64,000 bases of DNA from Psilocybe cubensis (Eukaryota). The notes under the pieces are model-generated. The model was not told the DNA's origin. It worked only from the letters and a program-made list of their open reading frames with translations, and did no database searches. The translations under genes and the position numbers were made by a program. Positions 35,152-57,345 of the stretch are shown here, piece after piece (positions within the stretch are counted from its first letter, which is position 1; each line of letters begins with the position of its first letter). Location of the stretch: the NCBI GenBank assembly GCA_017499595.2, contig CM039003.1, positions 2,542,001 to 2,606,000 on the forward strand, written 5' to 3'.

Positions 35152-36954
35152 ATGGCGATGGCGACTCCTATCCGCAAGAAGAGGAATTGGAAGGCTCTGC
35201 AACTGAGTGTTGCAGGTGATCCTTCCCCAGCGACTGCCCCGGAGGGTACAGAACCAATGGCCATTCGACAGGCTCCAGCTCCAGTCGTCGCAGCTACAGC
35301 ATCGGCACCCGTCGTCGGTGGAAAGAGACGGCCACCTCCCATGGTGATCAAAGCGCCTAAAATTCCCACCTCAACCGGTGCTGTATCCGCGGTAGAACAA
35401 GACGGCAACATGCTCACCGTCGGTGGAAACCTAAACCAGCAGCCACATTCAGCATCGCCTAATCTACGTCGTAATACGTATCATGCCACACTATCCAACA
35501 CGCTAGCCAACCTGGACATGAACGCCGAAATCAAGTTCGATTTGAAGAATGAGGATCTCAAAGACCTGCAGGAGCTCGGACAGGGGAACGGCGGAAGTGT
35601 GAAGAAAGTTGAACACATCCCAACAAAAACCATCATGGCCAAAAAGGTGCGTTAATTTTGCTGTCCACCAATTACTGGTGTCCAACCGTCCGGATGTTCA
35701 TCACTGATGCGCTTGTGGCTGACGTCGTAGATCGTCCTGATTGATGCGAAGCCCTCTGTGCGGAAACAGATCTTGCGAGAGCTGCAGATTATGCACGATT
35801 GTCATTCGAAGTATATCATATCCTTCTGGGGAGCTTTTCTTGCCGACCCTAATATCTGCATGTGCATCGAGTTCATGGACAAGGGGTCACTAGATGGCAT
35901 CTACAAGAAAATTGGACCCATCGACATCGACATCGTCGGTCAGGTGGCCCTGGCCGTGTTGGAAGGTTTGACATATCTTTATGATGTCCACCGTATCATT
36001 CATCGAGGTATGTCCCAATTTCTTCGACTAAATATCCCTCTCCCTCGTCCTCTGTCACGTGAGGGACCGAGATTGGAGACGACCTTGTCCAACCGGCAGT
36101 GTTGTCAAGACTGAGGTGTCGTCATAACGATTTTTCCTGGTTGCTGACTTCTTTTTCGTGTAGACATCAAGCCGTCGAATATCTTGTTGAATTCACGAGG
36201 AGAGATCAAAATTTGTGATTTCGGTGTATCCGGAGAGCTCATAAACTCCATTGCTGATACGTTCGTGGGCACTTCGACGTACATGAGCGTGCGTAGTTAA
36301 TCATTTTGATATCTTGATTCACAAGGTTGACATACTTTTCTCTCTCCATTGCGTGCCCAATCATGACTTGTACACTTTTTGAACACTTCTCGTCGTGCCG
36401 TTAGCCCGAACGAATACAGGGAGCGCAGTACACTGTCAAATCAGATGTCTGGTCGCTCGGCATTTCTCTGATCGAGCTTGCCCTTGGCCGTTTCCCATTC
36501 TCTGAGTCAACGTCTGATGGAGAGTCAGACTCGGACTACGAGGGAACTCTGTCGCCTGCCCGACCCGGTTCTATATCGCTCTCCGGTCTCCCACCTGCCC
36601 GTATCAAGAGGAATACGCCGAAGAAGGACAAGCGGAAGAGTAAAGGTGTGAGTTTGCAGGGTGGAGGAATGACGATGAGTATCTTGGAGTTGTTGCAGCA
36701 TATCGTGAACGAGCCTGCACCACGGCTGACGCCTGAAGGACGATACCCGAAGGAAGCTGAGGCATTCATTGACAGCTGTCTGTTAAAAGATCCTGATAGC
36801 AGAAAGACGCCAAAGGATCTATTGGTGGGTTGAAGTTTTGTCTTGTTTCAATATAATTACTGATAATCATCGCGTGAATTTGTAGAAGGATGCATGGATA
36901 GAACAGGCACGAGTGTCGACAGTGAATCTGGAAGACTGGGCGAGCACATTCTAG
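35152..36954 (+). CDS. STE7: MAP kinase kinase, Ste7/Fuz7/Byr1 type
   Basis: N-terminal docking motif [68 protein letters not shown]. Confidence 0.93.
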
Positions 36955-37346
36955 AGATTGGACTTGAAGTTCAGTTACCCTCCAACCATTACGCATATGC
37001 CATATCTTGCTTTCTAGACCCAGGAATATTTACAGACAGCAGAATATTTTTGTCGTCCATCTTTCGCCTTTTTTTTCTATGTTCCAAAGAGATACCACAT
37101 TTTTCTTCTTATTTAACCCACTATCATCGCTCTCTCACCATACCTTCATTTCTATGGCTTTGCGTTGTCGTTGTTATTCTCTTCTACATTGTGCTTGGTT
37201 CGAATCTTCTCATATCAGATAGTAATTGTATTTTAGGTGGATGTAAAACGTTACACACACAATCGAAGTGTTTGCGAAACGAAACGATTCTCGGTCGTGT
37301 CACACATGGTGCTAAGCGCAATATGTCACATCACATGATATGACCT

Positions 37347-37363
37347 CGCGTCATTTTCGCGCC
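37347..37363 (+). promoter_or_regulatory. CGCG-core (MCB/E2F-like) motifs upstream of RAD4
   Basis: CGCGT and TTTTCGCGCC about 100 bp before the ATG; function inferred only. Confidence 0.3.
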
Positions 37364-37454
37364 GAAATGTGGAGTGACTCATCCAAAGTACCTTGAACTT
37401 GAACCTCCATCACAAAAAAATCAACTACTAATTTATTCAAACACATAAACCCAA

Positions 37455-40400
37455 ATGTCCTCAGAATTAGAAGATGAAACCTTGCTTCAAGAAGAAGAAA
37501 GTGAAGATGAATTCGATTGGGAAGAAGTCGAAGTGCCCGAACATCAAGCTCCACATCTTGAAATTACACTGCAGCTGGGCCCCAAGGCGTCCAAGAACAG
37601 CGCAAACGCGGACAAGTCGGTCGCTTCCATCACTTCTCAGTAGATTGAACGTGGTTTTTAGATCTCATTTTGGCTAGGAAGAAGGGAATAAACCATGCAG
37701 AGCGGCTTGTTCGGATTGATTGTCATAAGATTCACACTGTCGCTCTCATTGCTAGTGCTCGTCAGCGGAACCTGTGGATTAACAATTCCTTATTACATGT
37801 GCGTTTGTGCTTATTATGTGCTGTGCGGACGTTGTGTTTACGTTGAGCGTTCAGGCTAGACTTCTCTCTCTCACTCCGCTGCATCTCCAGAATGCTTTTT
37901 CAGTTATTCATAAATCCCGCGTGCCAGATCAGAACCAGCGTGGGCGCATGTTTGAGAGAGCCGTTGAGAATCTAACTACATGGTGGGCTACTACATTCTT
38001 TGAAGTGATACCCGACGGACACATACGCAACCGGACGTATGATGAAATACAGCAGAAACTCGAAATACGAGGGCTGCATATCAAGACTGCCGACGAGGAG
38101 CTACTCGACGTTGAGACTCTCCAAGATATTGTCGATGATGAAGTAGAAACGATTCGAAGTTCAAAGAGTCTTATGAAACATGCGCTTATGCGTAGCGGAT
38201 CTAGGGATACGAGTGCGCAGCTTTTTACAGCTTTGTGTAGAGGTCTGGGCATCCCCGCTCGTTTGATCGTCAGCGTGCAGAGCGTCCCATGGCAAGCCAG
38301 CATCGGAAGACCGAAGCCCAAGTATGAGAAGAAGCCGAAGGGAAAGGGGAAAGAAACAGAAGTTGTACAGGACAATGAAGCCGGCGAAGCCTCGAGTTCG
38401 AGTCAATGGGATCATCTGAAAGAGCCTGGAAATCGACTTGACGGCGGCTCCGTGCCCATGAGCGAGAAGGCAAAAGGCAAGCAAAAGGCCAAACCGATAA
38501 TCAAGCTGCGGAAAACGAAGACCAAGGGTAAGGTCTTGGGGAGGCCAACCAGACTGGGTATGTCAGCCCTTGCCATGCTTCACAGTACTATTTGTCTCAT
38601 TGTTCATGACCAGCCTCTCCGGATCCGCTAACAACGCCTCCAGTATATTGGACGGAAGTGTTCTCCAGGCCAGATTCCCGATGGTTCCCAGTTGATCCTA
38701 TTCGTGGGATCGTCAATAAACGTAAGGTGTTCGATCCGACTCCATCAACCAGCAATGTCAATGCACAGGCCAGGATACCCACAAAAGTCGAGAATCGGAT
38801 GGTCTACGTGGTTGCATTTGAAGAGGATGGATATGCCCGAGATGTGACGCGGCGGTATGCTAAAGAGTACAGCGCGAAGGTGGCAAAAGTTCAAGGTGGA
38901 AGCAACGCGCCCAATATTGGCGGTGGGGGCAAAGGCCGCCAGGCGTGGTGGGATAAGGTTGTCAGCTCCATTGAGCGACCGTTTCGATTAGTGAGCAGAC
39001 TTTCTTAATCCTAGACGAAATGTTGATGAATGAATAGAACCGCGATGATTTGGAAGATCAAGAACTGGAGGCAGTTCAGCTGATGGAGGGCATGCCTACC
39101 ACGATGTCTGGGTTCAAAGACCATCCACTGTATGCCCGCCTCATCAACTACTTTTCATGTTGCTCACTATTTCATTCAGATATGTTCTGACGCGACATCT
39201 GAAGCAAACCGAGACAATTCATCCTCCACCACCAGTTACACCAGAGCTTGGAAAGTTTAGAGGAGAGCCTGTTTACCCGCGATCGGCTGTAGTTTCTTTG
39301 AAGACGGCGGAAAATTGGATGCGAAACACGGGGCGGATGGTAAAAGCTGGCGAGCAGCCAATGAAGATGGTAAAGATCCGCGCAGGGACCGTCAATCGCA
39401 TGCGGGAACTCGAGGTCCTCAAAGATGAATTGAGCGTGGCTGGTGAAGGAACTTCGAATTCGGGCCCAGAGGTTCTGCAAGGCTTGTACGCATTTTCACA
39501 GACGGAGCCTTACGTCCCCGATCCTGTGGTCGATGTGAGTCACTTTTTTACCTACATTGTGTTGCGCTTGCTTTCGGTCGCGGTGTGATTTACGAGACAT
39601 TTTTTAGGGTAAAGTCCCTAAAAACAATTTTGGCAATATCGATCTGTACGTACCGTCTATGCTCCCTAGAGGAGCAGTGCATATACCCTGTAAGTTTTTT
39701 TTTCGGGCACCGTGTAGGCTTGGTAGAGGGGCTCAATTCATTTTTATCTTTTGTTGTCGTTCAATAAGTCAAAGGTGTTGCCAAAATAGCTCGAAAACTA
39801 GGCTTTGACTATGCCGAAGCAGTTGTACGTAGTTTTCTTTTCAATTTGCTGACCCCATCTTTAACTTGTATTCCGTATTCAGACTGGTTTTGAGTTTAAG
39901 AAACGCAGGGCGTTTCCCATACTGGAAGGAGTGGTTGTCGCAGCTGAAAATGGAGAAGCTCTGACAGAGGTAATGATCACCATTTGTATTGCGATATATT
40001 CGTTAAACCCAACTTGTCCTGCAGGCGTATTTGGAGGCTGAACGGGAAGCAGAGGAGAAAGCCAGACTCAAACGGGAAGAACGTGTACTGAAGCACTGGA
40101 AGCGCTTGATCCACGGCCTGCGCATTCGGCAGCGACTGCAGGACCAATATGCCACCAGGGCGGGTCATGGGCAGAGCCAGCACCACCATGGGCATTCGCA
40201 TTCCCACGTTGAAGCCACTGAGAGCGAAGTTAAATCGCGAGAAGGGTCGCCTCATGTTCGTACCATTCAATTTGCTTTCATTCCTCTTCCGCCCCTGTTA
40301 TTCTTTGCTTTGGCGTGGATACCAGGGGAGGAGGGCGTTATGTTAATCTAAATCTAAACCTTTTGTTTTTTTGTCTCTTTGTAGAATGATCCACAGGACA

Positions 40401-41623
40401 CGGCAGGTGGCTTCCTAGCAGGCGCGGATAAAGTGGTATACGCCTTCCATCTGCCCAAGAACACACACGTCGTGTTACCTTCTACACCTCCCCCTGGGGG
40501 TGTAGCGGAAGGTGCCGGCGCGCCGGACGCACGGCGGGATGCAGAGGAGGAAGAGGACGTACCCCGCGAGGCGTTCGTCACGTACGATCTCGACGAGGAC
40601 GACGAGGAGAAAATGGAGATTGATTACGCGGTAAATGGCGGGACGCGTGTGCAGAGTGGTGGCCCAGGCGTCAACGGGTTTGATGCTGCGTATGTCCCGA
40701 AAACGATGCAACAAATGGCTGAGGATGCTGCTGCTGAAGCTGAAGCGGCGCAGAAGCTGCAGGGCGACGGAGATGATGTGCTGGGCGAGATTATCACGAC
40801 GGAGCCCCCGCCGCCACCGCCACCGCCGCCCACAGCAGCAGCAGCTGCTGCTGCTAGCGCTTCTGCAGGTACAGGCGTGGATAAGGTTACTACTACTCCT
40901 ACGCTGCCTGGCAGAACTACGCGAGCCAGAGCCAGAGCCACTGTCTCTTCCTCGTCTGCTGCTGCTACGTTTGCGTCTACGTCTACGTCTGCGACGCCCA
41001 ACAGCCTTTCATTGCGTAAGGACGCGACGTCGACGCTTGAGGATGAGGCTCAGGCTCAGGCTCAGGCTAATGCGGGTCTGGGTTCGAGTTCGAGAAATGC
41101 TGGCACCAGGGCAGGGGCAGGGACGGCGTCACGCGCGAAACCGCCCCCGAAACCGAAGCTGGATGCGAATGGGAATGGGAATGCGAAGGTAAATGCAAAG
41201 GCAAAGGCAACGGCGAAAGGGAGAGCGAAACCTAGAGCTAGAAGTTCGGCGAAGCGGAAGCGTGGCCGTGGTCGGCGAACTGCTGCATCCGAGTCCGAGT
41301 CCGACGAGGCGGAGGAGGGGGATGAGGATGAGGAGGGGGATGAGGATGTGCCGCTGGATGATGATGATGACAATAACACTGACGAGTCCGATAAGGACGA
41401 TGACGAGGAAGATGAAGAGGATTTCGGTCCATCGCCTAGCAAGCGCGCGCGCGTAAGCGTAAAGATCAAACCTCCTCCACGCACACTTGCGCAATCTGCA
41501 CAATCTGTAACTTTGACACCACAATCAACGCGCACGCTGCGCCCGCGCGCGTCCAAGACGCCTGCGCAAATTGCGGAGGACAGGAGGCGCGAGGAGGCGT
41601 TTCGCAGGGCTGTGGCTGGATAA
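37455..41623 (+). CDS. RAD4: Nucleotide excision repair protein Rad4/XPC with a long low-complexity C-terminal tail
   Basis: FDWEEV, GSRDTSAQLFTALCRGLGIPARL, YWTEVF, ARDVTRRY, FKDHPLYVLTRHL, VPKNNFGNIDLY, TGFEFK, WKRLIHGLRIRQRL. Confidence 0.95.
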
Positions 41624-43557
41624 TGCCTACTGTTGTTGTGATTGTTTTTTCTCTTTTTTCCTTTTTTCTGTTTTTCTTTTTTTCTTTTTGGCTATGAAGA
41701 TGCTGGGTGCATCCCGTCACTATTTAATTTAGCACTGGCGTTTATCTATTTGTTTTTGTTCTTTGGAGGTGGAAACTGATTTTTTTTGCTTTGGAAATTC
41801 CGACTTTCGATGTTCCATTTTCGATTCTCGATTTTCTGTTTTGTGTTTTTTTGGATACTTGGTTGGGAATGGATATTACCTCCCTTTCTCCAAGCAGATT
41901 GATCACTGAACTTCATTCCGCGTGAAAGCTACTCAAATTTGAATTAGATTCCATCGTCCACCGTGACATACCGTACAATACAGAATACAAATTGCAACTT
42001 ACTCCCGGTTTAAATCCCGTTACATTGTACTGTATTCTCATTGTCATGTCTCGGTTCTCTTCTTCCATCTTCCATCATTATGGTCCCCAGATCTTCTTTA
42101 AAATTATAGTGATCGTTATAGTTGTATTGTAGGTAACATATCGAATGTATCCATATGCCATTTGGCATTGGTTACATTTTAATTAGTGTTCGGTTTTGTT
42201 CTATTGGATTTGAATATCATACTCATACTCGTACATACAATACTCATAGTTATATCGTCCTCCTCTGAATCTTCAAGTTGATTAATTGATAAATGACTCG
42301 GATTAATTCAATTTTTCGTTGACGAACGAAATGAAATGATTATCATTCGACGAATTGACTTGTGGGATAGAGATGAATGGATGGATGGAAAGGACAGACA
42401 AACGAACGAACGCATGAGAACGAACGAATCAATGAGAATGAGAATGAAAATGGGGATTGAATATTGAATAGGAATGTAAAGTGCTCGTATCAAGATTCGA
42501 TGGATGCTCAGTGTTCAAGCGCTCAATGCCCACACAGAACCATCCTATGGCTACACCGACATAACCCAACCCAATTCAAATTCAAATCCAAGAAGTCCAG
42601 ATATCAACCTCCAATATCCAATGTCCAACGTCCAAATTGCAACCCGAAAGCCCCCAAAATCCAAATTTTAAATCCAAAAATCCAAAGTCTGAAAGCACAT
42701 AGAAGATAGTAGAGAAAACTTCGACAGTTCAAAACACTCAAACAGAAACAGTAAACCAAAAACCAAAAACGGAAACAGTAAGAACCAAAAACAGAAACAG
42801 AAAACCCAAAAACAGAAGCAGAAGAACCAAAAGCAGAAACAGAAGAACCCAAAAACAGAAATAGAAGAACGACACAGAATAACCATAAAAATACAGATGA
42901 ACCATAATGACACCGAAGAACCAAAAGCAGAAACAGAAAAAACCAAAAAAAAAAAAAAAAGAAAGAAAAACAGACACCGTGACATAGAAAAAAACAGAAC
43001 GAAGTAAAAAATCCGACACCTCCAACACCAAACCACATTCAATTCAAATTTTCAAACCTTTTCTTGTCTGGAAATTTTATCATCTCTCGGTCTCGTTCGC
43101 GTTCGCATTTTTATCCAAAGTATCCAAAGTCGTACATCGTCTTATCTTACCCTTCACATTCACATTCACATTCAAATCCAAATCCAAATTCAATCCAAAT
43201 CTCCGTCATTTACATATGAAAGTTCTATTCGGGTTACTCGACATATCTGAATCGTACATACATCCACCCTCGAACTGCGAGCTAAAACTTGAACTTCATA
43301 ATACTAACTAGATCAGGCATCGTTTCACACCAAGGATCCGCACGCATCCGCATCCGCACTGGTGACATTGACAATGACAGTAAGAGTGAGGGTGACGGTG
43401 ACGGTGAGGGTGACGGCGTCTAAATCCTCTTTACCCACTTTACACATTTGACTCTGTCACCCTTTTGTTTTTTTTTTTTTGACTTTGCTTTCAACTTCTG
43501 TTTTCGCCCACGCATTCACTTCAACTTCTGTTTTCCGTTTCGGTTTTGACTTCAACT

Positions 43558-46500
43558 TCAACTCCTGTTTTCGGTCTCGACTTCGCTTTCCCTTGTTTTG
43601 ACTTCGACTTCAGTTTCTCTTGTTTCGACTTCAGATTTATCTCCACTTTGCCTTCCATTCACCCCCTCTCCCTCCCCCTCCCCCTCTCCACCCTCCCCCT
43701 CACCCTCCCGCACCCCCTCCCCCTCCTCCTCCTTCAAACCCAAATCAAACACACCAGAAGAAGAACCAGACCCAGAAGAAGAAGAACCCACATTAAACAC
43801 AGAAGGCACCAAACACGCAAAAGTAAGATACGAAGTGTGCCCTCGCACCTCATGTAATGCTTTTGCTACGTTTATTTTTCTTGGTGTTTGTTTTTGTGTT
43901 GGTGGTTGGGTTTGTTTTTGTGGTTGGGTTTTGTTTTGTATTTGGTTTTGGCTTTGGCTTTGGCTTTGGCTTTGAGTTGGTGTCGGTATTTGTTTTTGTG
44001 CTGGTGTCTGTGTCGGCGTTTGTGTCTGCGTCTGCGTCTGTGTTGATGTTGGTGTTGGAGTCTGTACTGTAGAACCGGATATCGTCGTAGATGACGTTGG
44101 TACAGATGCAACTGCTATTGACGTTGATGACGCTGCCGCTTCCGTTGGCGCGCTTGTACTTGATGATAGACCAGTCGTCGGTATCGGTATAGGCGCAGGC
44201 GTAGGTGTAGGCGTTACAGACATCGGCGTGGACATCTCCACATCCTCATCTCCGCGCACATCCTCATCCACATCTCCCTCCGCATCCGCATCCTCATCGC
44301 CCTCTACACCCACATCAGTACCCTCACCAGTACCCTCACCCCCACCCTCACCTCCGCTCCCACCCCCACCCGCACCCTCAATCCTCACCTTCTTACTCAC
44401 ACCCTCCTCCTCCCCGTCCTCCCTCTCTCTCTTCACCCCCACCCCCCTCCCACCCCCACCCCCCCTCGCCACCCGATTCGCCTCAACCTGCCTCACCCTC
44501 TTCTCCTCCCTCCTCACCTCGCTCGCCTTCAACCTCTCCGATACGGCCGCTACAGACTGCAGTGGTGCGTGCTGGAACACTTCGTGTGGGCGTAGGAGGG
44601 TTTCGTAGGTTGTTATTTCTTTTTTTTGTTTTTTTGTTTTTTGTGTTGAGTTTTGGGGTGGTTGGGTGGATTTTGTGGGTGGATTTGTGTGAGTGTGAGA
44701 GGGGAGGGAGAAAGAGAAAGAGAACGTTAGTCAGGTTAAGATCGATCAGAGAAGGAACAAAAAGAAGAGAAGTTATTGAAAATTTGAAAAAATTTGAGAA
44801 TCAAAAATATAAGAGCGAAGGTGATATGATAAAAGAAAGAAAGAAATAAAGAAAAGTAGCGATGAGGTCTCAAAAAACAAAAAGAAAAACAAAAAGAAAA
44901 AGAAAAAGAAAAGAAGAAAATTGTGAATCGCAATTTTCGGATATATGCGCTACAAGTTTCGCGATATATGAATTACAATTGAAATTTGGAACTGGTCAAA
45001 TTAGAACCAGAAGCAGAGGAGGAGGAGGAAGTGTCGCATACATACACCCACAGAACACAGAACAGAACACAGAAAGCCGAAAGCACGTTCCAGGGTCCAA
45101 AAATCCTGAATCCCGTACAGAGCAAAGCAAAGCGGAAAAAAAACGCCCCTCCTCTCCCCCCCCCCCCCCCAAAAAAAAAAAGAAGAAAAGAGTCAGAGAG
45201 TGGGAGTCAGAGAGCCAGAGGTGTACATGCGCTGCGTAGCGCAAATATGCACCCATACAAAACCAGAATTCAGAATCAGAATCAGAATTAGAATTCTGGA
45301 TCCGGAACGGAACAGAGCATAAAGGCAAAAAAAAAAAAAAGAAAAAAAAAGGCTTCAAAGCTGCACAAAAAAAAAAACGAAAAACACGAAAAACCAGAAA
45401 AACAGAAAAACCAGAAAACAGCAAGAAAAAACCAGAACAGAAAAACAGGTAACAGAAAAAAAACCAGGTAACAGATAACAAAAACACCTCAAAAAACCAG
45501 AAAAGCAGGGAAAAAACCCCAAACACAAACCCAAAAACAAAGACAAACTCAGCTCAGTAGCCCAGCACTCACCAGTAAACCCAGCCTCATTCAACGCGCT
45601 CACGGTGCGCAGGACCTGTTCGATGCACGGGCTGAAGCAGCATATGCGGGCTAGCGTGTCTTTCTGTTGTGTGTTGGAAATGGGTGTTAGAGATGGGTGT
45701 TAGTGATGGGCATTAGAGATGGGTGTTAGATGTGAATGTGAGGGTGTGGGTGTGGGTAAGAGTGTGAGGGTGAGGGTGGAGGGTAGGATGTGGGAGTGTA
45801 AGAAGGTAGAAGGTAGAAGGTAGAAGGGCAAAAGGGAAAGGGGAGGGGATGGGGAAGGAGGAAGGAGGAGGGGGAGGAGGGGAGAAGGAGATGGGGAGAA
45901 GGAGATGGGGAGAGGACGACGTACCCTTAACGCCTTCTTCGCATGTTCAACTGCGTCCCATGGAGCGGGTAGGTCTAGGAACACTGGGGGCGGGTGATAG
46001 TGGATGGTGGATAGTGGGAAGAAAAAAAAAAACAAGAAAGGAAAAGAAAAGAGAGAATCGTCAGCGCACCGCCATGACAAAAAAAAGGAAGAAAGACGTA
46101 CCAGCATCCACAGCATCCACAACCGTGAACCCGTCCTTGCACACATTACGATGCGTGAGCGTGATTGTACTTTCGAGACCGTGCCGGGCGAATTCTTCTC
46201 TGTATGTCGGGAGGGAGGTCAGAACGCATAAGAGAGAGAGAGAGAGAAAGACGAACTTTGCTTTGATATACCGCGCTTCATGGAACTCGTACGAGTACAA
46301 ATGTCCTTTTGCGCCAATCGTGCGTGCGACAGAGTGCGAGAACGACGCAGAGCCCGTGCCTATAACCACTCATCAGCCCCCCCCAAAAAAAAACAACGAA
46401 GAAAAAAAAAACCCACCAGCCTCAACAACCCTACTCCCCGGCCTAATCCCCAAATACGCCGTAACAAACGCAATATCCGCCACATACAAAATCTGCGTCC

Positions 46501-46807
46501 TATGCGGGAGCGCAACCGTCCACAACTCGGGCGTCGGGCGTAGGATATGGACGAAGCCGCGACCGGAGCGCGAGGGGACTTTCGAGCCGTAGGGCACGCC
46601 GATGAAGTGGTCTTGTTTGAAGTTGCCGAATTTGGTGTTGAAGTCGCGGCCGGGGGTTATGGTGAGGGGTTGGATGTTGTCGCGGGTCTGTGGGGGGAGG
46701 GGGAGGGTTAATGGGTGGGAGAGGGAGGGGAGGGAGGGAGGGGAGGGACGTACGAGCCAGACGATGACGGTGTCGCCTGCAGCGACATGACGGGCAGACG
46801 ACCACAT
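43558..46807 (-). CDS. TRM61: tRNA (adenine58-N1)-methyltransferase catalytic subunit, 7 exons
   Basis: [87 protein letters not shown]. Confidence 0.95.
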
Positions 46808-47065
46808 TAGAGTTTTTTCGTTAGAGTGGAAAAAAAGAGGTGACTAGTGAGATCTGATCTGGTGTGATGTGATGTGAGTGAATAGACCCGGAGTGCTGGG
46901 TCAGGGATAGGATTGGATTGGACGAAAAAAGAAAGAAGGAAGGAAAGATTAGATTGCGCGCGGGATCTGGAGCTTCCTCTTTCGGCGCCCCTCAAATAAA
47001 GCCTCCGTTGCTCCTACTATGCTACTCCTAGCCATCACCCTCCCCCTCTCATCCCTCTCATACCT

Positions 47066-50000
47066 ATGCCCGTCCAGCCAGACACTACGCCCTGTCTCTC
47101 TTTCAGTCCGTCTCCCTCCCCCTCTCTCTATTTCTGCTCACTCATTGACTTACAGTCGGCATCGTCGATTTCTCCCAAGAAGTACGCTCTTTATAATAAT
47201 ATAATATAATATATTATATTATATTCATGCTTTAACTGCAGGCGAAATGGCTGTTTATGACTGAATCAGTCACCGAGCTCCTCGGTACCCTCCCCCCCTC
47301 CTCCTCCCGCTAACACTAACCTCAAACGCAACGCACAGGCTACGAACCGCACGAGCTCATCGGCCGTCCCTCCCTCGAGCTCGTGCACCCCGACGAGTTC
47401 CCGCGCGTCCGGCAGCTCCATTAGTCTGTCTCCCTCTTGCAATATTTATTCTTTCGCTGACATTGATGATTTTGGTACAGCGATACAATCCAGCAGGACA
47501 AAGCAGCCGTCCTCGTCTACCTCCGCATGAAACACAAGGACAGATGTAAAGGCTACGTCCTCTGTGGCGTTGTGGGTGTCTTCTCTTTCTTTCCTTTTTC
47601 GTTTCTTGGCTCTTGGCTTACTCCCCTCTCCTCCCTCCCTCCCTCCCTCAATCCACTCAGTCAAGGTAAAAAAAATTCACATCTCAACAAGAGAAGACAC
47701 ACACAGGCTAACTCAACCGCATGCCGTAATAGAACAGTAGTCCACAACGTCCTCGTCGGCAGCGTGTCATTCGCCAGCCCCGGCGCTAAAGCGCTCCATA
47801 ACGCCTCGACTGCACAGGAGATCACTGTTATTAGTCCTGCTGCGGAGAATTTCGAGTTTAGGGTGCGTTTGTGTTTTTTTTTGTTTTTTTGGCTTTGGTT
47901 TGGGGTTTTTTTGGGTGTTTGGTTTTTTGGTTTTTTAGTTTTTTGAATGTTTGGTTTTTGGTTTTTTTGGGCGTTTGGTTCTTTGGTTCTTTTATTCTTT
48001 GGATTTTTCGGGGGGCGTTTATTTTTTTTCTTTTCTTCTTTTAATTAAGAAGAAAATGAATTGTTATTCCAGCGCGACATCCTTCTTTCTCAATCACCCC
48101 ATCTCTTATTTCCTTTTTATATCACTTTTAATTTCCTTCCTTTCCTTCCTTCCATCTCTTCTAATTTCCTTTCCTCCCCTTCCCCTCACACTTCCCCTTA
48201 ACACTCACTAACCCACCCCATTGTCCCCACAACAGAGATGGCACGACCCCTCCCCAATGCCCCCCTCCCCAATCCCAGCAAACATGGCCGACCCCGCTGC
48301 GCTCTCGCTCTCCCTTTCCTCTCTCTCGTCCCTCACATCCCATTCCTCCGCCTCCGCCTCCGCCTCGGGATCCGCGGGCCAGGGACAAGGACAGGCACAA
48401 GGACAGTTCCCGCTCTCGCCTACATCCCCCGCACCCTCCACCTCCACCTCGACGTCGTCGTCGTGGGGGAGGAGTAAAGGTGGCAGTGGTAGCCCGCGCG
48501 AAAGGGAGAGGGAGCGCGAACGCGAGCGCGAAAGGAAAAATGGGTATGGGATGGATATAGATATGGACGTTGATATGGAGGATGTTGGGCGAGATCGCGA
48601 GTATACCCGCGCGTACAGCGATAGGAAACACAGCCGCGAGTACAGCGATGAGAGGAACACGCATTATCGGAAACGCAGCGGCGAGTACGACTACGACTAC
48701 ATCAATAAAAACCGCGACTACAACAACAATAACAAAAACAGCAGCAGCGATAGCAGACACCGTTCGGATTCAGGTGGCTCCGCCTCGTCCTCCGCTGAGA
48801 TTATGCATCACAGGGGCGCGCGTGGATGTGATCGTGATCGTGATCACGCGAGCGCGCGCGGGAGGGGGAGGCTGAGTGCGAGTCGTAGTAGGAGTCGGAG
48901 TCGTAGTGGGAGTCGTAGTGGAAGCAGGAGCGGGAGTAGGAGTAGATTTGGAAGTGGAAGTGGAAGTCGCAGTGGAAGCAGGGATAGGAGCAGGAGCAGG
49001 GATAGAAGTCCAAGCAGGAGCAGCCTAAGCGACCTCTCACTTTCTTCGGAGCGCGAGAGGGAGGGGGGGTATATTCGCACGAGCAATGTGCGCGGTTCAG
49101 GTTCGCGCGGGTCGCGCGGGTATGCAGATGACGAGGAGAGGGAAAGAGATCGCGAGGAGGCACAGAGGCGCGCGCATACGCATACGCGGGGCGATAGCGA
49201 TAGCGGGCACGGGAACGGGCGTGGGGGAAGAGAGTATGTACCTGCGCCGTCGTCGTCGGCTTCGCCGCCTTCGTCTCCTCCACACGGGCACTCGCATACG
49301 CGCGCGCGCGCGCATGCGCACGCGTCCTCACATGGGCGCACGAACGCGCACAAGGACGCGCATACGCTCACTCCAGCTCTCACGCCCACGCCTACACCCA
49401 CACCCACACCAACACCCGCGCCGCAAATACCTCCCACGCCCACGCCCACGCACACCACACCCGCGCCCGCGCCCCAAATACCCCCACACCTCCCTCCGCC
49501 GCAAATACCCCCCACACCTACCCAACAAGGCCTCATAACCTTCCCGCCCCTCCCTACCAAATCCCTGCGCACCGCGCTAATCCTCGACAGGTTCTCATCG
49601 CACTCGCCTATAATGTACTGTTCCAATTCTCTCTTATTCCCCTCCTCCTCCTCTTTCTCCTCCACTCAATACCAAAATCAAAATCAAAATCAAAATCAAC
49701 AAACACTCAACACCTCAGCCTCCGCCCAAATAATCGGCTCATCATTCTACGACTGGGTCTCATCCCGCGACATCCCCGTCGTCCGGAGCTGGATCGATCT
49801 GGTGAAAGGATGGGGAGTGAATGAGAGGGGGGAGCCGAGTGATGGGGGTTTCGGGTTTGGGAGGTTTGGGTTGAGGGTTTTGAGGAGGGGGTGAGTGTTT
49901 GTTTTTTTTTTTGACTTGGGGGTTTTTGGGGTGTTTGGTTTTTGTTGGTTAACCTAAAAGACTACCTAACTAACTAACTAACTAACTAACTAACGCCCTC

Positions 50001-50449
50001 CCTCCTTATCTAGAAACCGAATACCAGAACCGCCTACACCTTCGCGCACCCGACGCGGTTCCACTTCCACCTCGCACTCACACTCGGCATCGGCATCGGC
50101 GCATCCGTATGGACAAGGGAGTAGACGGCATCCGCCTTTGAGTGCGAGTGCGAGGGCTTCGCGGGGTAATAACGGTAACGCTTCTAACGCGAATGGTAAC
50201 GGCACTGTGAATGGGAGTGGGAGTGGGAGTGGGAGTGGGTATACGAATGGCGGTGGGAGTAGGAGGCAGCGGTTAAATCAGGGATCAGGCGTCGGCGTCG
50301 GCGTCGGAGCGGGGGCAGGTGGACACATGGGTGGTGGGGTAGGAGGAGGAGCAGGGGAAGGACAAGGAGACGACTGCGAGACGTTCAAAGTGGACGCTAT
50401 ATTTTCGGCGCATTCGGATGGGCTGATGGTCATTTTGCGACGGGCTTGA
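47066..50449 (+). CDS. Fungal PAS-domain protein (two PAS-like regions separated by a low-complexity insert)
   Basis: Spliced: MPVQPDTTPCLSFIGIVDFSQEAKWLFMTESVTELLGYEPHELIGRPSLELVHPDEFPRVRQLHY...; C-terminal RTALILDRFS...IMYCSN...GSSFYDWV...VDAIFSAHSDGLMVILRRA. Confidence 0.85.
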
Positions 50450-53400
50450 GGTTTTTGAAAGGCTTGGAATTTTTGAAAATCTTGATGTTTTTGGTCTGGG
50501 GGTTTGTGGGGATCTTTTTTCTCTTTTTTCTTTTTTTTTTTTGGAGTGTTGGTTTGTTGGTTTGTTATGAGTATCGTGCTGTGCTGTGTTGTTTTCGTGT
50601 TGTCCTATGTTGTTCTATTTTTGTTCTATTTTGTTTTCGTGTTATGTTATGTTATGTCTGTATCGCTCTTGCACTTCGCGTTGGCGATTCAAGCTTTCGA
50701 GCTTCTTTGACCAATCCCTTTCTTTGTCGTTTTTTTTATCCTTCTTTGTTCCTTGTTCCTTTTTTTTGTTTTTGTTTTTGTGATATTGTATGACATCCCA
50801 TCCTCATCCTCACCCTCCATTTCGACTTCGCCTTCGACTTTGATGTAGATACCTATACCTATACCTATACCACGCCCGCATCCCACCAGCCACATCCCGC
50901 ATCCTTGCTCCTCCTTTTCTTCACTTCTCTGATTCCTACTCGCCGGCCCCATCATCCACATCCACATCCACATCCACTTTTTCCTTCTCCTTCTCCGCGT
51001 TCTTCGCATTCCTCTTCCGCCGCTAGCCAGCCAGCCAGCTAATGCGATATCCGATAATCCTCTAGAATTTTCTTGGACCACCCCTCCGCCCCGCGGTTTT
51101 CCTCTTCTTCTTCCTCTTCCGACAACGACAACAACGAGAACAACAACGACGATCGCGAGGATAACGACACCGACAACGACGATCGCGATACTCGACGACA
51201 CCGATACTCGATACGCCGACACCGATGTTGATATCCGCTGCTACGTGATCCATGATACATACCCGCCTCTAAGTCAAAGTCGAAGTTGAAATCAAAGTTG
51301 AAATCAAAGTTGAAGTTCCGAGTCGAGTCGAGTCGAGTCGAGACCGTGCTTCGCTGGAACATTCCTTTTTGCGCTGCGCTGCGCGGCGCTGCGTGGTGTG
51401 GGGTGCGCCAGAACCAGCGCCAAAACCAGCAGTAGCACTAGTACTAGCGCGTCACCACAGCGTCTATGTATCCGCACCGCACCGCGTGGTCTGCGTCGTG
51501 CTTTCCGCGTTGCGCGTCGTGCGTCGTGTTTTCCGCGTTCAGAACCGCCACCACCAACAGAAGCGCTGTTATTGTATTGTATTGAATGTGTTTTCTTTTT
51601 TTTTGGTATTTATGTACTGTTTTTCTTTCTTTTTTTTTTATTTTCATTTCATTCCATGCCTTGTCATCCCATGCTTTGTTTTGTTATTCCATGCTCATCT
51701 CCATGCTCATACCAACTCGACTCAATCGCGTGTTCCGTGCTTTTATCTTATTTTCAAGTTTCGCTCTTCGCTCTTCATTCTTCATTCTCATTCCGTCAAT
51801 TATACAATGCAACCTGCGCTCGAGCTCGAAAATACGCAGTTTGTTCCATTTTAAATTTTCAATCTTTAAACTCTAAATCCCATTTTTTAAAAAATACAAG
51901 TCGAATTTGTGTATGTATGTACAAAGTTGTGATTATTTCTTGTTCCTTGTCCCTTGTTCCTTGTTCGTTTTCGTGTTCGTGTTCGTGTTGTTGTAACAGT
52001 TGTATATACGTACGTCTGCCTTACGATTCTGATTGTGTATATATCAAGTAGTGTTCGGTATGCCATGCCTGCCTTTTTCTTGTGTGTCAGATTGGAGTGG
52101 ATGCTCGAGAGGATATGATATGACTGTGCTTGTTTGTTTTTTTACTCGGGGTATTGTGTATCTCGTCATGCGAGTTGCGTGTTGCCTCGCATGGGCGCCT
52201 AGGCGCATGTGGGTCCTAAAACCACCGACCCGAGTGAGGGGAACCCCCATTTGACATTTGATGCGCGTTGAATGTACGCGGCGTGAAAGTCACACCATCA
52301 CCATCATCATCATTATCGTCATCATCGTATACAGGGGCTCGTTTCAATTTAACTTGGGGTTATGTTTTTTTTTATTTCTTTTCTTGCGGTCTTTTTTTCA
52401 CATCTTTTTTTCACGTTTTTTTGTGCATGCATGGACCGGAATCGCAGAGTGCATGTAAGTCGCACGGTTTTTGTCGTTTACATCTGCTTTGCGATGGAAC
52501 GGGGACTGGTATACCGCGCTATACCATACCAGCCAGCGCTACAGACACGGACCATAGCATGGCATCAGCACTTAGTCAGTGAGTAGTGACTCCCTCCTAA
52601 ACTCCTAGGCCATCCAGCGCATCACTTTGCACATCCACATCCATCCCGCGGAGATGAACTGCCTCGCTTTGTATTCAAGTTGCTTCGTATTACATCGCCA
52701 TCGCTTCCTTTTTCATTTGCATTGCATCGCGCTGTGCTGAAATTGGCGTCGGATACGGTTCGGTGTCACGGTTCGCTTGAATACTGGACTTGAAGTGGCA
52801 GTGGCAGTGGCCGTAGCTTCTGTCGGTCGGTATTTTGCGCGATGCGATTGAGATAGGGCTGCTCGTTGTAGTGCTAATGGTAGTGTTTGACGTCTGGTTA
52901 TCGGGTCCATGGGGATACGATGGATATGGTTGTATAGGAGGAATAGGGAGGCGAGGCTTTGATGGAGGTGTTATTGCTATCACTATCGCTATTACTATCA
53001 CCATTACGAATACCATTACTATTAGTATCAGTATTACTATTACTATTACCAGAAACGGAACTGGAGCTGAACGAATGGATAATAGAAGTCCCAAGTCAAG
53101 TTGAAAAAAAGAAGCGAAGAAAAGAAGCAGCCGCTGCGTCTGACTGAGTAAGCAGTAATTCCAAAGTACTGTCATAACCTTCAATGGATGAATGAATTGG
53201 GGGGAGGGGGGAGGGGGAGGATACTTCAATTTGGCGTTGTGTGTGGACGTGAGTCTGACGATGAGTTTGACTCTGAACAGTGTAACTGGTACAACTACTA
53301 CTGCTGCTACTGCTGCTGCTGCGATTCAGTGCCCGAGCCCGAATCCGGGTCATGCTCGAAGTCGAAGTCGAGATCGAGACCCCTATCCCTCCCTCCCTCC

Positions 53401-54595
53401 CTCCTCCTCCGCCATCTCCCATCGCTTCTGATTCCTACCGGCATATGCATGGTCTTATCCATATCCATACCACCGCAGAATTACAAATGACGAACGAACG
53501 AATCCATCCCGGAAGAGCTCCCGACTCCGAGAATCAAGAATCAAGAATCAAGAATCGTGAATCGTGAATCGAGATACGTACACCGGCTGCCAGGCGCCAG
53601 AGTGCCAATTGCGAGAGTGCCAGATGGCAGGTGTCAACACCACGCCCCTACGCCCCACGCCTCACGCTCACGCTCACGCCCACGTCTCGGTCGGTCCTTT
53701 CCTGAGAAGGAAAAGCGAGAAATAGGGAAAGGAAAGAAGCAGATGCGGAAAAACAGATGTGGAATTGGAATTGGAATTGGAAGCGGAAGAGGAAAAGTGG
53801 AAGAGGAAGTGGAAGCACACGCAGACGAAGCTGGGATCTTAATCAGGCAGGGCAGACTTTCAGGTCCTCAAAACATCCTTTTTTTCCCTGTTCCCTGCAG
53901 GGTCTATCCTGAGAGACCGGAGGATCGCTTGCCAACTCTGTGCGCAAGTGATACATACAACTATCGCAATACATATTCTCTCGTTCACTTCCATCCCCTT
54001 CTGATTTGTGGTGTGACCCCAAATTTCCAAAACGAAGAACAAGGCATACCACAACTTGATAATCCACGATTCAAAACACCACTACAACCACTATACTATC
54101 AGCATCAAGATCAAATTGAATACCATTATCAATATCATTACCAATCCTCCGACCGATCTCAGAATATTCAGAGTCTGATGGCCTAACGCCAAAGCTTATT
54201 TTTTCTTAGAACAACAAATAACCCGACCCGAGATCCACTGAAAGTACAATGACACATTGGAGTATCTAATCTCCCATGGCAAAGTTAGAACAGTGCATTT
54301 GTCATGGTCAATGGTCATTGTCAGCACCCCCAGCCAGAAATATAAATAACTTGCGATTTGGTCCGCCACGCTAAGCCGAAAAGTTGAGGAAAAAAAACCC
54401 AAGCGTCGATGAAAAGTCTGGCTCTGGCGAGGTGATCGGATCGAATGAGGTGGAGGAGCAAGAGAAGAAACATAAAACGCGATTACAGACTGTACAAACC
54501 ACGCGACAATCCATATATGTAACCCACACACGCACGATGCCATGGACATGGATCACAAATTGTAAGTACGTTACTCACTATCAAGGGTACTATGA

Positions 54596-57345
54596 TCACG
54601 CTACACCAAGTCTGAAGAAATCGGGTGCGAATGCCGATGGGTTGGAAATCTGGACCGTGTTCACTTTACCTGGCTTGAAACCTGGCATTGAGAGCAAGTA
54701 GCCTTGGAATAGGATGTCCCAGCTCTGTAGTACCAAATACGCCCCGAAAAGTCAGCAGCCGAAGAGATCCACGAAAAAATCAGAACGAAAAAAGGATGAG
54801 GATGAGCTAAAGCGAAGGGTTGAGATGCGCACATCCCAACCATCCCATCATCCACAACTCGATAACGCAAGCAATCAAATTCAAAATAAAACACATCTGA
54901 CGCACCTGTGCCGAGATGGGCATCTGTGCCTGAACAGGCGTGCCTCCGTTGACGCTCACAAACGCATTACGGCAATTCGAGCACGCGTTGTTGTTGAACG
55001 TCACATCCCCATTGATATAATCGAACGAGAGCAGCTTCGTGCCGCCCGACGCGCCCCCGTCGACGTTGTTGAATGTGAGTGTGCCGCCCTCGCCTACGAA
55101 GCCCACCACCGTCGTCGAACCGTTGACCACCCGCGTCGACGCACCGCCAGCAAGTGTATTTGTGCTCGCAGCCGCGGCGTAGAATGTGAATTGCGGAGCG
55201 GGTGCGCGGACCCCGTTGCTCAGTTTCAGCGCCATAGACCCGTGGGCTGCCACGGTCGCCGTGAACCTATATCGAGAAAACGAGTGCCGCCATTCAGTCC
55301 CACTTCTCCTCTTTCTCCACCCTATTATGCAGGGAAATGCACTCACGATCCCGTCAGTTGTCCGAGGCTTGCGCCGGTGATAAGGTCCGTCGCACTGGCC
55401 GAGGAGAACCCAGCATCGGCAAGGTTGAAAGTAAGGGACCTAGAAGCGTTCTGCCAGTTTATGACGACTTTTTTATTGTTTCGATATTATCAATCGAGTC
55501 ATTTTGTTCAATGCGATGGACCTTCTACTGTTATTAGCGAGAAGGACTCACTGGCAACAGTTGATCCGTCAGCTAGGGGACCTGCCCAAACGTCATGGTC
55601 GTTCGTATAGCGACGCATGAATTTGATAGACGCTCCAAGTGGGTCTTGCTGGGAGATAATGAAATTTAATATTAGACTCAATTAATAATGGGGACCGGGC
55701 ATCGTAAGACGTACGTTCACCGCAATAAGCCTAGTGTTTTTCAGAATACCAAGGGTTTGCGAAGAGGGGTTAGTGAGATCCGTCGAAATAATCAGGGGAG
55801 ATCTAACAATCCACAAAAAGTTTGTAAACTAAAACTAATCGAGGCTGGGGAAGAACGCTAAGACACGCACTTTGCTGCTGCCCAGAAGGCAAAATGTGTC
55901 TGCTGTTCGGCTGCCGTGAGCCCAGAATTGCCTACTTCGAGCATATCCAAATCTAAAGTGCAGAGAATCAGGCCCAAAGAGTGGCGACGTGTATTTTTAG
56001 GTACACCCACCGTTCCACGCCCCTGGACGTGCAAATTGGGAGATAGGCACCAGTTGGTTTATGATCCTAAACAGGTTATCCCATGACGCGGGAGGTCCAA
56101 TATCATTCCTGAATTTGCATTTGAGGCTGATGAGAATACTGATGGACTGTGGCTGAACGACTTACGAGATTCTCCAACTGAATGAAAGCGTCGTAAACAT
56201 TTTTTGCAATAACCAGACAACACTTTCTGACTTACGAATTGCCAACGTCACTGGCAGGCCATCTCGCGGGGTCTTCACGGACATTAAACTAACGACATAC
56301 GCATCGTAGACATAGATGCCCTACCTTGTACACCCCATTCACAAATTGAAAATACGATTGGCCTCTTTGTGGCCGCCAATGCGTCGCGCATCGTGACATA
56401 ATGGGCCTAGGGCTGAACTGAGTTTCGCAGCTACTTGATACATGATTATAGTAGGTACCTCAATCTGGCGGTTTTATTCATGAGTGTCGAAAGACAATAA
56501 AGCAGATGACAGCATACGAACCGAAATGGGGGGATTATCATCCACAAAGTCTGTCGAGCTCACTAGTGGCGAGAATGATTACTTGTTCAATGGCGGCGGT
56601 TGATGTAAGATGTCCGAAAGCTTTACTTGCCTGCGAAACAATTGTCGTACTAGAAGTCAATACATGATCGACAGTCAGTCAACTGTTAGTACAAAGATGT
56701 TGTCATGCCTAAAACATTTACCTTCAAATAATCTGCACCCCAAGATGCAAACGTGAGTGCATCTGAAGTTTCATGTCCCAGACTACCGAGGTAGTGGGCT
56801 GTTCCCCCGACAGCGTCGCAAGCGAAGACTCCTCTAAATCAAAGTTATTCATATTTCAAATACGCCATGAACATGACAATGACATACCCATCGGAATAGA
56901 CTCCAAACTTGAGCCCAAGGTTGTGTATAAACGATGCCAAAGCAGGTATCCCATCAGGGATTTGCGTAGTGTCCCATGTAAATCCACCAGTCGCATTCCG
57001 CGTTTTGCCTTGCCAGCCACAGTCACTACCAAAGGTTTTGGTTAGCATTGCCTTATGTGCCTCTGTCAATCTTCTCTGACACACAGATTGACATATTTGT
57101 AACCCAAAGTGCTCAATCCCAAGTTGATCAAGCTTTGCGCCGCACTTTTGTATTGAGCTTCCGTGGTGGTGCAGCTAAAGATTAATAGTTTGAATGGAAT
57201 GACAACTGAAAATGACTGTATTGGCTTACAAGAAAGCATTGTAGGGGTTCCATCCCATCGGTGGAGTAACAGCGACTCCATTATTCAAAGCATATACCGC
57301 CGATGATAGCCAAAGGCCAACGTATACTGAAAAATTCGATATCAT
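54596..57345 (-). CDS. Secreted GH27 glycosidase with a C-terminal CBM35-like module
   Basis: Signal peptide, ALNNGVAVTPPMGWNPYN, VNLDCGWQG, GLKFGVYSD, WGADYLKYDNC, WRISNDI, LDMLEVGN; C-terminal beta-rich VVGFVGEGGTLTFNNV...NPSAFAPDF. Confidence 0.92.

Follow-up and report, generated by a model that had tools for sequence, protein, structure and literature searches.

How a stretch of chromosome can be packed with short tandem repeats while the genes that it carries stay open is the question raised by a locus of Psilocybe cubensis. The window analysed here is the whole 64-kb stretch of DNA around this locus (contig C6, 2542001-2606000, from a genome of 46.6 Mb in 21 contigs), and positions are counted within it. 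The original prediction placed a repeat-packed island of about 13.5 kb at 40700-54150 roughly centred on a divergent promoter, and attributed it to a local mutational regime, such as a long-lived meiotic recombination hotspot or a zone of error-prone repair synthesis.

Extent and repeat content of the island

The existence of the island was borne out by the repeat annotation. Tandem repeats detected by TRF cover 35.6% of 40700-54150 (236 rows), in contrast to 1.3% of the other 50.5 kb of the window (30 rows); the change points are given in Table 1. The surrounding DNA is repeat-poor, as had been claimed, also across a further 70 kb of flanking DNA (0.2-2.5%). In a systematic sample of the genome (40 x 10 kb), mean repeat cover was 1.7%, with 7 of the 400 kb reaching at least 15% and none reaching 30%. 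Such repeat density is not ordinary for this genome, but the island is not unique either, being one among many (see below).

All kinds of DNA are affected, in agreement with the original prediction: repeat cover amounts to 31% in coding sequence, 50% in introns and 34% in spacers. The 67 hexamer rows of the island are spread over 58 unit classes, so that no single repeat family accounts for it, and none of four long island frames gave a Pfam match, in keeping with the claim that a transposon ORF is absent. Strongly G+T or C+A skewed 100-mers make up 35% of the island and 2.5-3.9% of the DNA outside. G4-type motifs occur at 12.0 per 10 kb, compared with 0.3 in the background (40-fold), and poly-A/T tracts at 4.3 compared with 0.25 (17-fold). 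The 64-kb window contains no tRNA genes and 40000-55000 gave no Rfam matches; this is not a structured RNA or tRNA locus. The island midpoint lies within approximately 0.5 kb of the divergent TRM61/PAS promoter, which agrees with the proposed centring, yet repeat cover at 46000-47500, the promoter region, is near the island minimum (11-19%).

When 36001-56000 is divided into 30 bins, Illumina reads from two runs of a separate study are found in every one of them, supporting the assembly at the level of short reads, which do not fix exact homopolymer lengths. Inside the island, read depth dips to about one fifth in parts and length variants are numerous. The island sequence is real and polymorphic. 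Contigs assembled from short reads break up within it.

Table 1. Features of the island and its surroundings (positions in the 64-kb window)
Feature	Position	Strand	Remarks
RAD4/XPC gene, about 1164 aa	37455..41623	+	Pfam Rad4, BHD_1, BHD_2; open model
Repeat-saturated island	40801-53800	.	two-change-point fit; 40700-54150 also fits
Convergent RAD4-TRM61 spacer, 1934 nt	41624..43557	.	32% tandem repeat, lag-6 match 0.41
TRM61 (GCD14), tRNA m1A58 methyltransferase, 578 aa, 7 exons	43558..46807	-	open model; Pfam GCD14
TRM61 intron 6, 954 nt	44619..45572	-	about 50-230 nt in relatives; first half G+T-rich, second less
TRM61 exon 2	46417..46687	-	conserved protein; silent sites go from C (start) to G/T (end)
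Divergent TRM61/PAS promoter, 258 nt	46808..47065	.	TRF 21%, lag-6 match 0.30; few six-base repeats
PAS_3-domain gene, 836 aa, 9 exons	47066..50449	+	open model; Pfam PAS_3
PAS 5-nt microexon	47661..47665	+	proposed because it restores frame and family residues over the junction
PAS 3' spacer, 3.7 kb	50450..54150	.	36% tandem repeat
Exon of next gene	54906..55264	-	silent-site GC 0.73; no Pfam match for the frame

Genes in and beside the island

Three intact genes were thought to have been rewritten by the island. All three have open models (Table 1), but RAD4 is affected only in its last exon (40385-41623), the sole part of the gene within the island, which encodes a dipeptide-rich tail of 454 aa (median 290; longer in 3 of 91 relatives). 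Exons 1-10 lie outside and served as a control. Several equivalent junction choices exist in the RAD4 model, so its splice sites are not unique. The TRM61 linker (247 aa, median 135) is the longest among 67, and the PAS linker (445 aa, median 68), located in exon 8 (48236-49890), is the second-longest in comparison with 77 relatives, one of which has a longer linker.

Intron expansion is partial. Introns measure 66, 57, 57, 118, 261 and 954 nt in TRM61 and 50, 60, 54, 57, 89, 67, 373 and 123 nt in the PAS gene, so that some are enlarged while eight of the 14 are of ordinary length (50-67 nt). Three TRM61 introns are skipped in contigs of run X10, another contig of which lies at 50791-52073 in the PAS 3' spacer. 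Our guess would be that these contigs represent RNA; no listed run is on record as RNA.

Comparison with relatives and strains

Metagenomic agarics retain the gene order PAS-TRM61-RAD4-kinase. The corresponding stretch measures 10.0 kb in P. cubensis, as against 5.3 kb (L022) and 4.6 kb (L027). In most relatives this block is compact: repeat cover is 0.3-3% in nine of the ten best fungal loci, a range that also holds for the six well-matched loci other than L021. The exception is L021 with 13%, the repeats of which resemble the P. cubensis island in style. In a quick tree of 31 rows with an unfinished search, L021 clusters on a long branch with Agrocybe pediades (SH-aLRT 93), whose PAS protein is likewise dipeptide-rich. 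The divergence of Psilocybe and Agrocybe is put at about 67 Mya in the available text of PMC10801892. The likeness of L021 may reflect shared ancestry or recurrence. Across 20 species pairs, co-expansion of the TRM61 and PAS linkers gave rho 0.38 (p = 0.095), and the dipeptide score gave rho 0.05.

Within the species, five contig sets of other strains hold 41-67% of the 31-mers of 44000-50500. The divergence implied by this sharing, a rough estimate in which relaxed constraint and misplaced reads are confounding factors, is 1.3-2.8% in the island, whereas it is about 0.6% in the left flank for X5. Raised polymorphism, which is expected of a recombination hotspot, is thus observed by this rough measure.

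A genome-wide class of islands

Eight hexamer patterns were searched on contigs C1-C13, yielding 178 sites in 127 clusters. Of these sites, 84 fell into 33 multi-site clusters; when the data were permuted 5000 times, 22 sites did so on average and 46 at most. Islands with 20-40% repeat cover were present in all 18 other multi-site clusters examined (19 of the 33 when this window is included). The 16 islands with both edges visible measure 7-15.5 kb (median 11.5 kb), the edges being set by eye, and total GC is above that of the flank in each of them. From a truncated-Poisson fit, about 87 islands occupying approximately 2% of the genome were estimated. The same fit predicts 30 single-hit sites while 94 were observed (mostly unverified), from which it follows that smaller islands or lone arrays occur as well. 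Taken together, the census suggests that the island belongs to a genome-wide class of roughly 90 members. Period 6 was foremost in 19 of 24 island segments, a count that is inflated outside this window by ascertainment, islands having been found by means of hexamers.

The clusters thin out away from contig ends. At distance thresholds picked after inspection of the data, their density is 5.4 per Mb in the outermost 0.25 Mb of contigs and 0.27 per Mb at distances above 1.75 Mb from an end, 6 of 127 clusters lie more than 1.5 Mb from ends (17% expected, p = 2.5e-5), and on C1-C4 only 1 of 37 lies more than 1.25 Mb from an end. Telomere repeats were seen at the left ends of C1 and C2 only. Some of the other islands centre in long exons, and several contain regulators (G-alpha, cyclin).

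Silent-site GC and strand patches

Among the 283 fourfold sites in conserved exons of the TRM61 and PAS genes, 200 are G or C (0.71); genes in the flanks have G or C at 341 of 669 such sites (0.51; p = 2e-8). In pairwise comparison with three relatives, the GC excess was 71:21 inside and 120:96 outside the island (L027), 29:16 and 52:55 (L024), and 52:30 and 29:34 (L029); the excess is confined to the island in all three. In other islands, fourfold GC reaches 0.83 in 7 genes (624 sites), compared with 0.47 in 27 background genes (1920 sites; highest gene 0.69), the gene stretches being Pfam-matched, from 282 and 138 frames, with three transposon frames excluded. Expression-linked codon bias was rejected as a cause, a ribosomal protein gene attaining merely 0.59. 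Just beyond the island, in a gene which we take to be glycoside-hydrolase-like (Table 1), silent-site GC is 0.73, 0.60 and 0.26 in successive outward exons (78, 25 and 19 sites). The rise in silent GC is thus limited to the region, as expected of a recombination hotspot.

Silent sites are also polarized along exons. In island exons, the ratio of C/A to G/T is 80:25 in the first 60 nt and 23:57 in the last 60 nt (p = 1.5e-10), whereas the RAD4 control exons are without gradient (31:40 and 33:42). The gradient of TRM61 exon 2 was found in none of the seven orthologous exons compared. Of ten stretches from other islands, which are not all independent, nine share this direction, and a weak gradient of like direction is present in background genes (14 of 25, p = 0.03). 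Introns of at least 89 nt are richer in G+T in the first half in six cases of six, and the eight short introns are without trend. Since a C/A-to-G/T pattern is its own reverse complement, dependence on transcription is not required.

The skew changes sign every few hundred bases, also inside long exons and spacers. On the scale of an island, substitutions are not strand-antisymmetric, whereas at silent sites sub-kb patches of this kind exist. Over 16 islands, the skew has no net antisymmetry around the centre. A single break or origin at the island centre was therefore rejected, and the promoter as sole break centre is not supported. The overall G+T skew keeps one sign in several islands.

The six-base period

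Runs of period 6 occur at 24.7 per 10 kb in islands and at 0.4 in the background. In the spacers of the window, period 6 accounts for 14 of 35 runs, and periods 5 and 7 form shoulders. Because the peak is found in spacers too, frame selection is not its sole cause. The hexamer units of the islands occupy 204 of 350 classes. The following sources of the hexamers were considered and rejected: i) decayed triplets, as the lag-3 excess is absent in spacers and internal lag-3 similarity is only slight, ii) telomerase-like addition, as the telomere unit has 7 nt and the island units are spread over so many classes, and iii) fold-back or templated inversion, as inverted k-mer sharing is equal within and between islands. 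Inverted 10-mers within 400 nt are not in excess (258, permuted 175-411), and simple-sequence matching accounts for the 25 longest among 63 inverted repeats. At least four MutS_V loci, unclassified, were detected when a missing MSH3 was sought as the cause of the unit size. The six-base period is unaccounted for by any reading considered.

Models of island origin

That a local mutational regime acts here is well supported, because silent sites of conserved exons shift along with the repeats; this part of the original prediction stands. Neither relaxed selection nor an insertion can bring about such a shift. We believe that the island is probably the footprint of a persistent meiotic recombination hotspot over native genes, as far as can be judged from sequence. 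The support for a hotspot is circumstantial and comes from silent GC, distal bias, the number and genome share of islands, and strain divergence. Distal crossover bias is known from Coprinopsis.

The hotspot model assumes repeated meiotic breaks spread across the zone, with resection of the break ends exposing single strands. Error-prone fill-in would then duplicate short units and strip C and A from the exposed strand, while heteroduplex repair would be biased to G/C and perhaps also to insertions. Selection would purge frameshifts and changes in folded domains, and growth would thereby be channelled to introns, spacers and disordered linkers, where it would take the form of dipeptide repeats. 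More speculatively, fresh G-runs and poly-A tracts might hold chromatin open and keep the zone hot. The model is weakened by the skew patches, which at a few hundred bases are below resection-tract length and follow exon ends. Moreover, hotspots are expected to be narrow, the classic width being about 1-2 kb in yeast and mammals, and none of the 16 measured islands is smaller than 7 kb. The weak gradient of background genes, the small effect in yeast, the limits of insertion-biased conversion and the crossovers of Schizophyllum (see below) also speak against the model.

A more far-reaching version is put forward only tentatively, and we would sooner doubt it than accept it. Some mushroom lineages might carry about 90 fixed, sharply bounded, hypermutable recombination domains of 10-15 kb, in which an undescribed repair step duplicating approximately six bases would rewrite silent sites strand by strand. 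Such domains would persist for tens of Myr, make the genes within them twice as long and create dipeptide-repeat regions wholesale, so that a recombination map could be read from one genome.

The strongest competitor, though unlikely in our judgement, is a zone not tied to meiosis, in which fork stalling or termination, R-loops or G-quadruplexes would lead to single-strand gaps and error-prone synthesis. Translesion fill-in would duplicate short units and bias substitutions to G/C, and the process would reinforce itself once G-runs had formed. Such a zone would fit the enrichment of G4-type motifs and poly-A/T tracts, although the former may be a product and not a cause. The many short skew patches in place of one centre, as well as the one-signed overall skew of several islands, would also agree with it, and a C-inserting polymerase could presumably lift silent GC without conversion. 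It predicts neither the thinning of islands towards chromosome middles nor the match to the number and share of mapped hotspots.

Readings based on selection are, even jointly, rather improbable. One of them invokes ordinary slippage with relaxed or positive selection on disordered regulators and long UTRs. Slippage is known to generate low-complexity sequence described as cryptic simplicity, which resembles the islands in that numerous short repeats, unrelated to each other and in decay, are found both within genes and in spacers. The expansions do fall in linkers that are already variable among relatives, regulators lie in several islands, and PAS linkers are long in several lineages. However, silent sites are shifted in folded domains (TRM61, BCS1, alcohol dehydrogenase), and introns and spacers of unrelated neighbour genes change jointly with sharp edges; neither sharp 10-15-kb domains, nor a silent-GC shift, nor distal placement is entailed by cryptic simplicity. 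The silent-site shift largely refutes this reading, to which we assign little probability. Slightly less still is left for selection at the RNA level, in which splicing signals or pairing between exons and introns would cause the C/A-to-G/T polarity and favour complementary repeats in long introns. The polarity tracks exon ends, all six longer introns follow it and background genes show a weak trend, but short introns do not, the sign also flips inside long exons and spacers, inverted 10-mers are not in excess, and the duplications and their clustering would be left unexplained.

That the island is foreign DNA, an assembly artefact or the remnant of an inserted transposon or satellite, as the dips in read depth and the fragmented short-read contigs could indicate, is highly improbable and already refuted as regards composition, since synteny with relatives is unbroken, 44000-47000 has only simple matches elsewhere (39-180 nt), no element protein, dispersed long copies or single unit was found among the four tested frames and 58 unit classes, independent reads fall in every bin, and a different agaric has repeats of like style at the locus.

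Relation to known systems

The islands behave like hotspot mutagenesis with biased conversion, to judge by analogy, yet they exceed the width of hotspots. In human hotspots, according to the accessible text of PMC7615360, C>N and A>N changes are asymmetric between strands, short insertions are templated by the flank, and translesion polymerases are proposed. Asymmetric loss of C and A, short insertions copied from the flank and tandem-repeat instability are features which the islands appear to share with this break mutagenesis. By contrast, the human changes are rare variants at short-lived PRDM9 sites, no farther than about 2 kb from a single centre (same text). In P. cubensis, the changes have become fixed and saturate 10-15 kb of DNA, the skew flipping many times and unit length peaking at six bases.

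GC-biased and insertion-biased gene conversion was reportedly treated by Leushkin and Bazykin in 2013. It is similar to the islands in a local rise of silent GC and net sequence gain. It differs in that the P. cubensis units are 5-7 nt long, and the GC rise may be a bias of fixation or of mutation. In the portions available, conversion is described as insertion-biased for 1-4 nt and deletion-biased for longer indels (10.1101/431841), and the human insertion-bias signal is disputed (PMC3879449).

Mushroom maps offer a further parallel. In the accessible parts of the two reports, 65 hot windows of 10 kb, in which SNP density is raised, make up 1.7% of the Lentinula edodes genome (PMC8704546), and Hericium erinaceus has 56 hotspots with GC of 57.8 vs 52.3% and higher rates at linkage-group ends (PMC7005679). 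These 56-65 hot 10-kb windows, 1.4-1.7% of the genome, are of the same order as the estimated islands and their share, and it is solely with such windows that the island width is comparable. Unlike here, repeat saturation is unmentioned in the searchable text of PMC8704546 and PMC7005679 (word search). One of 12 island gene names is present in the Lentinula QTL gene table, a match by name only and not of orthologs.

At yeast Spo11 hotspots, the consulted part of PMC2267716 gives an approximately twofold association with microsatellites, weak or absent for 4-6-mers, and repeats are proposed to form or grow at hotspots or to help activate them, which would parallel the islands. The yeast effect is about 2-fold with units of 1-3 nt, whereas in P. 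cubensis it is about 27-fold for repeat cover and 60-fold for period 6, exons included. In Schizophyllum, crossovers fall in conserved low-diversity exons without a sign of gBGC, according to the accessible text of PMC4209137.

Such islands were not described in the literature searched, which comprised openly accessible papers and few of their supplements, nor were they found by word search in papers on Heterobasidion and Armillaria SSRs, on a P. cubensis genome and on three linkage maps. If they are scars of hotspots, mushroom recombination sites would be predictable from sequence, which would aid breeding and mapping, and the disputed recombination-driven origin or fixation of short repeats could be tested directly where the genome is small and the effect very large. 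A specific repair step is suggested by the six-base period and by the way in which silent sites flip between strands. Low-complexity protein linkers can stem from the position of a gene and not from its function.

Finally, eight of 13 off-target sequence matches were not islands: the match at C3:469k was too small and the other seven had 1.9-2.4% repeat cover. Six of these seven have near-identical profiles, like copies of one element.

Gene models of TRM61 and the PAS gene

The spliced TRM61 model encodes 578 aa, as opposed to 600 aa in the public annotation (P0001), where the in-frame intron 1 is read through. In L021, the orthologous locus that groups with Agrocybe pediades and also contains an island, TRM61 lacks introns 1 and 5. 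Intron 2 is short both in the window (57 nt) and in L021 (about 52 nt), compared with about 230-270 nt in the loci of other relatives (L022-L029).

For the PAS gene, a microexon of 5 nt was predicted, its junction being the exact point where several public ortholog annotations disagree. The 3' spacer was matched by a 1304-nt contig from sequencing run X10, whose depth (107) was much higher than that over the PAS coding region. Our guess is that X10 is an RNA run; the contig may represent a long UTR or a separate non-coding RNA. In Schizophyllum, single models of 1550-1660 aa (P0221-P0225 and P0306) hold both Rad4 and PAS_3 domains. These are probably merged neighbours, which would mean that local gene order differs there.

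Motif clusters and repeats elsewhere in the genome

Clusters of hexamer-pattern sites generally thin towards chromosome middles. The right 1.6 Mb of C9 contained none and represents a distal exception to this placement. On C7, one island motif recurs at 7.8-kb spacing, a periodicity that suggests a tandem segmental array adjoining the island at 175-190 kb. Two identical motif series on C10, separated by about 469 kb, together with two further motif pairs, could reflect either a large duplication or an assembly repeat. Five places on four contigs (L006-L008, L010 and L011) had near-identical composition profiles over 10 kb and are probably a recent family of repeat elements. A plant-type 7-mer constitutes the telomere repeat at the beginning of C1 and C2, and interstitial copies occur every few kb throughout the first 85 kb of C1.

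Coordinates of the described features
Feature	Sequence	Position
TRM61 ortholog	L021	3711-4545
PAS microexon	window	47661-47665
X10 contig in the PAS 3' spacer	window	50791-52073
7.8-kb motif recurrence	C7	188194-239847
Cluster-free region	C9	1530097-3132992
Identical motif series	C10	801953-823385; 1270273-1292694
Further motif pairs	C10	400682/902769; 483219/986608
Telomere repeat	C1	1-184
Telomere repeat	C2	1-147
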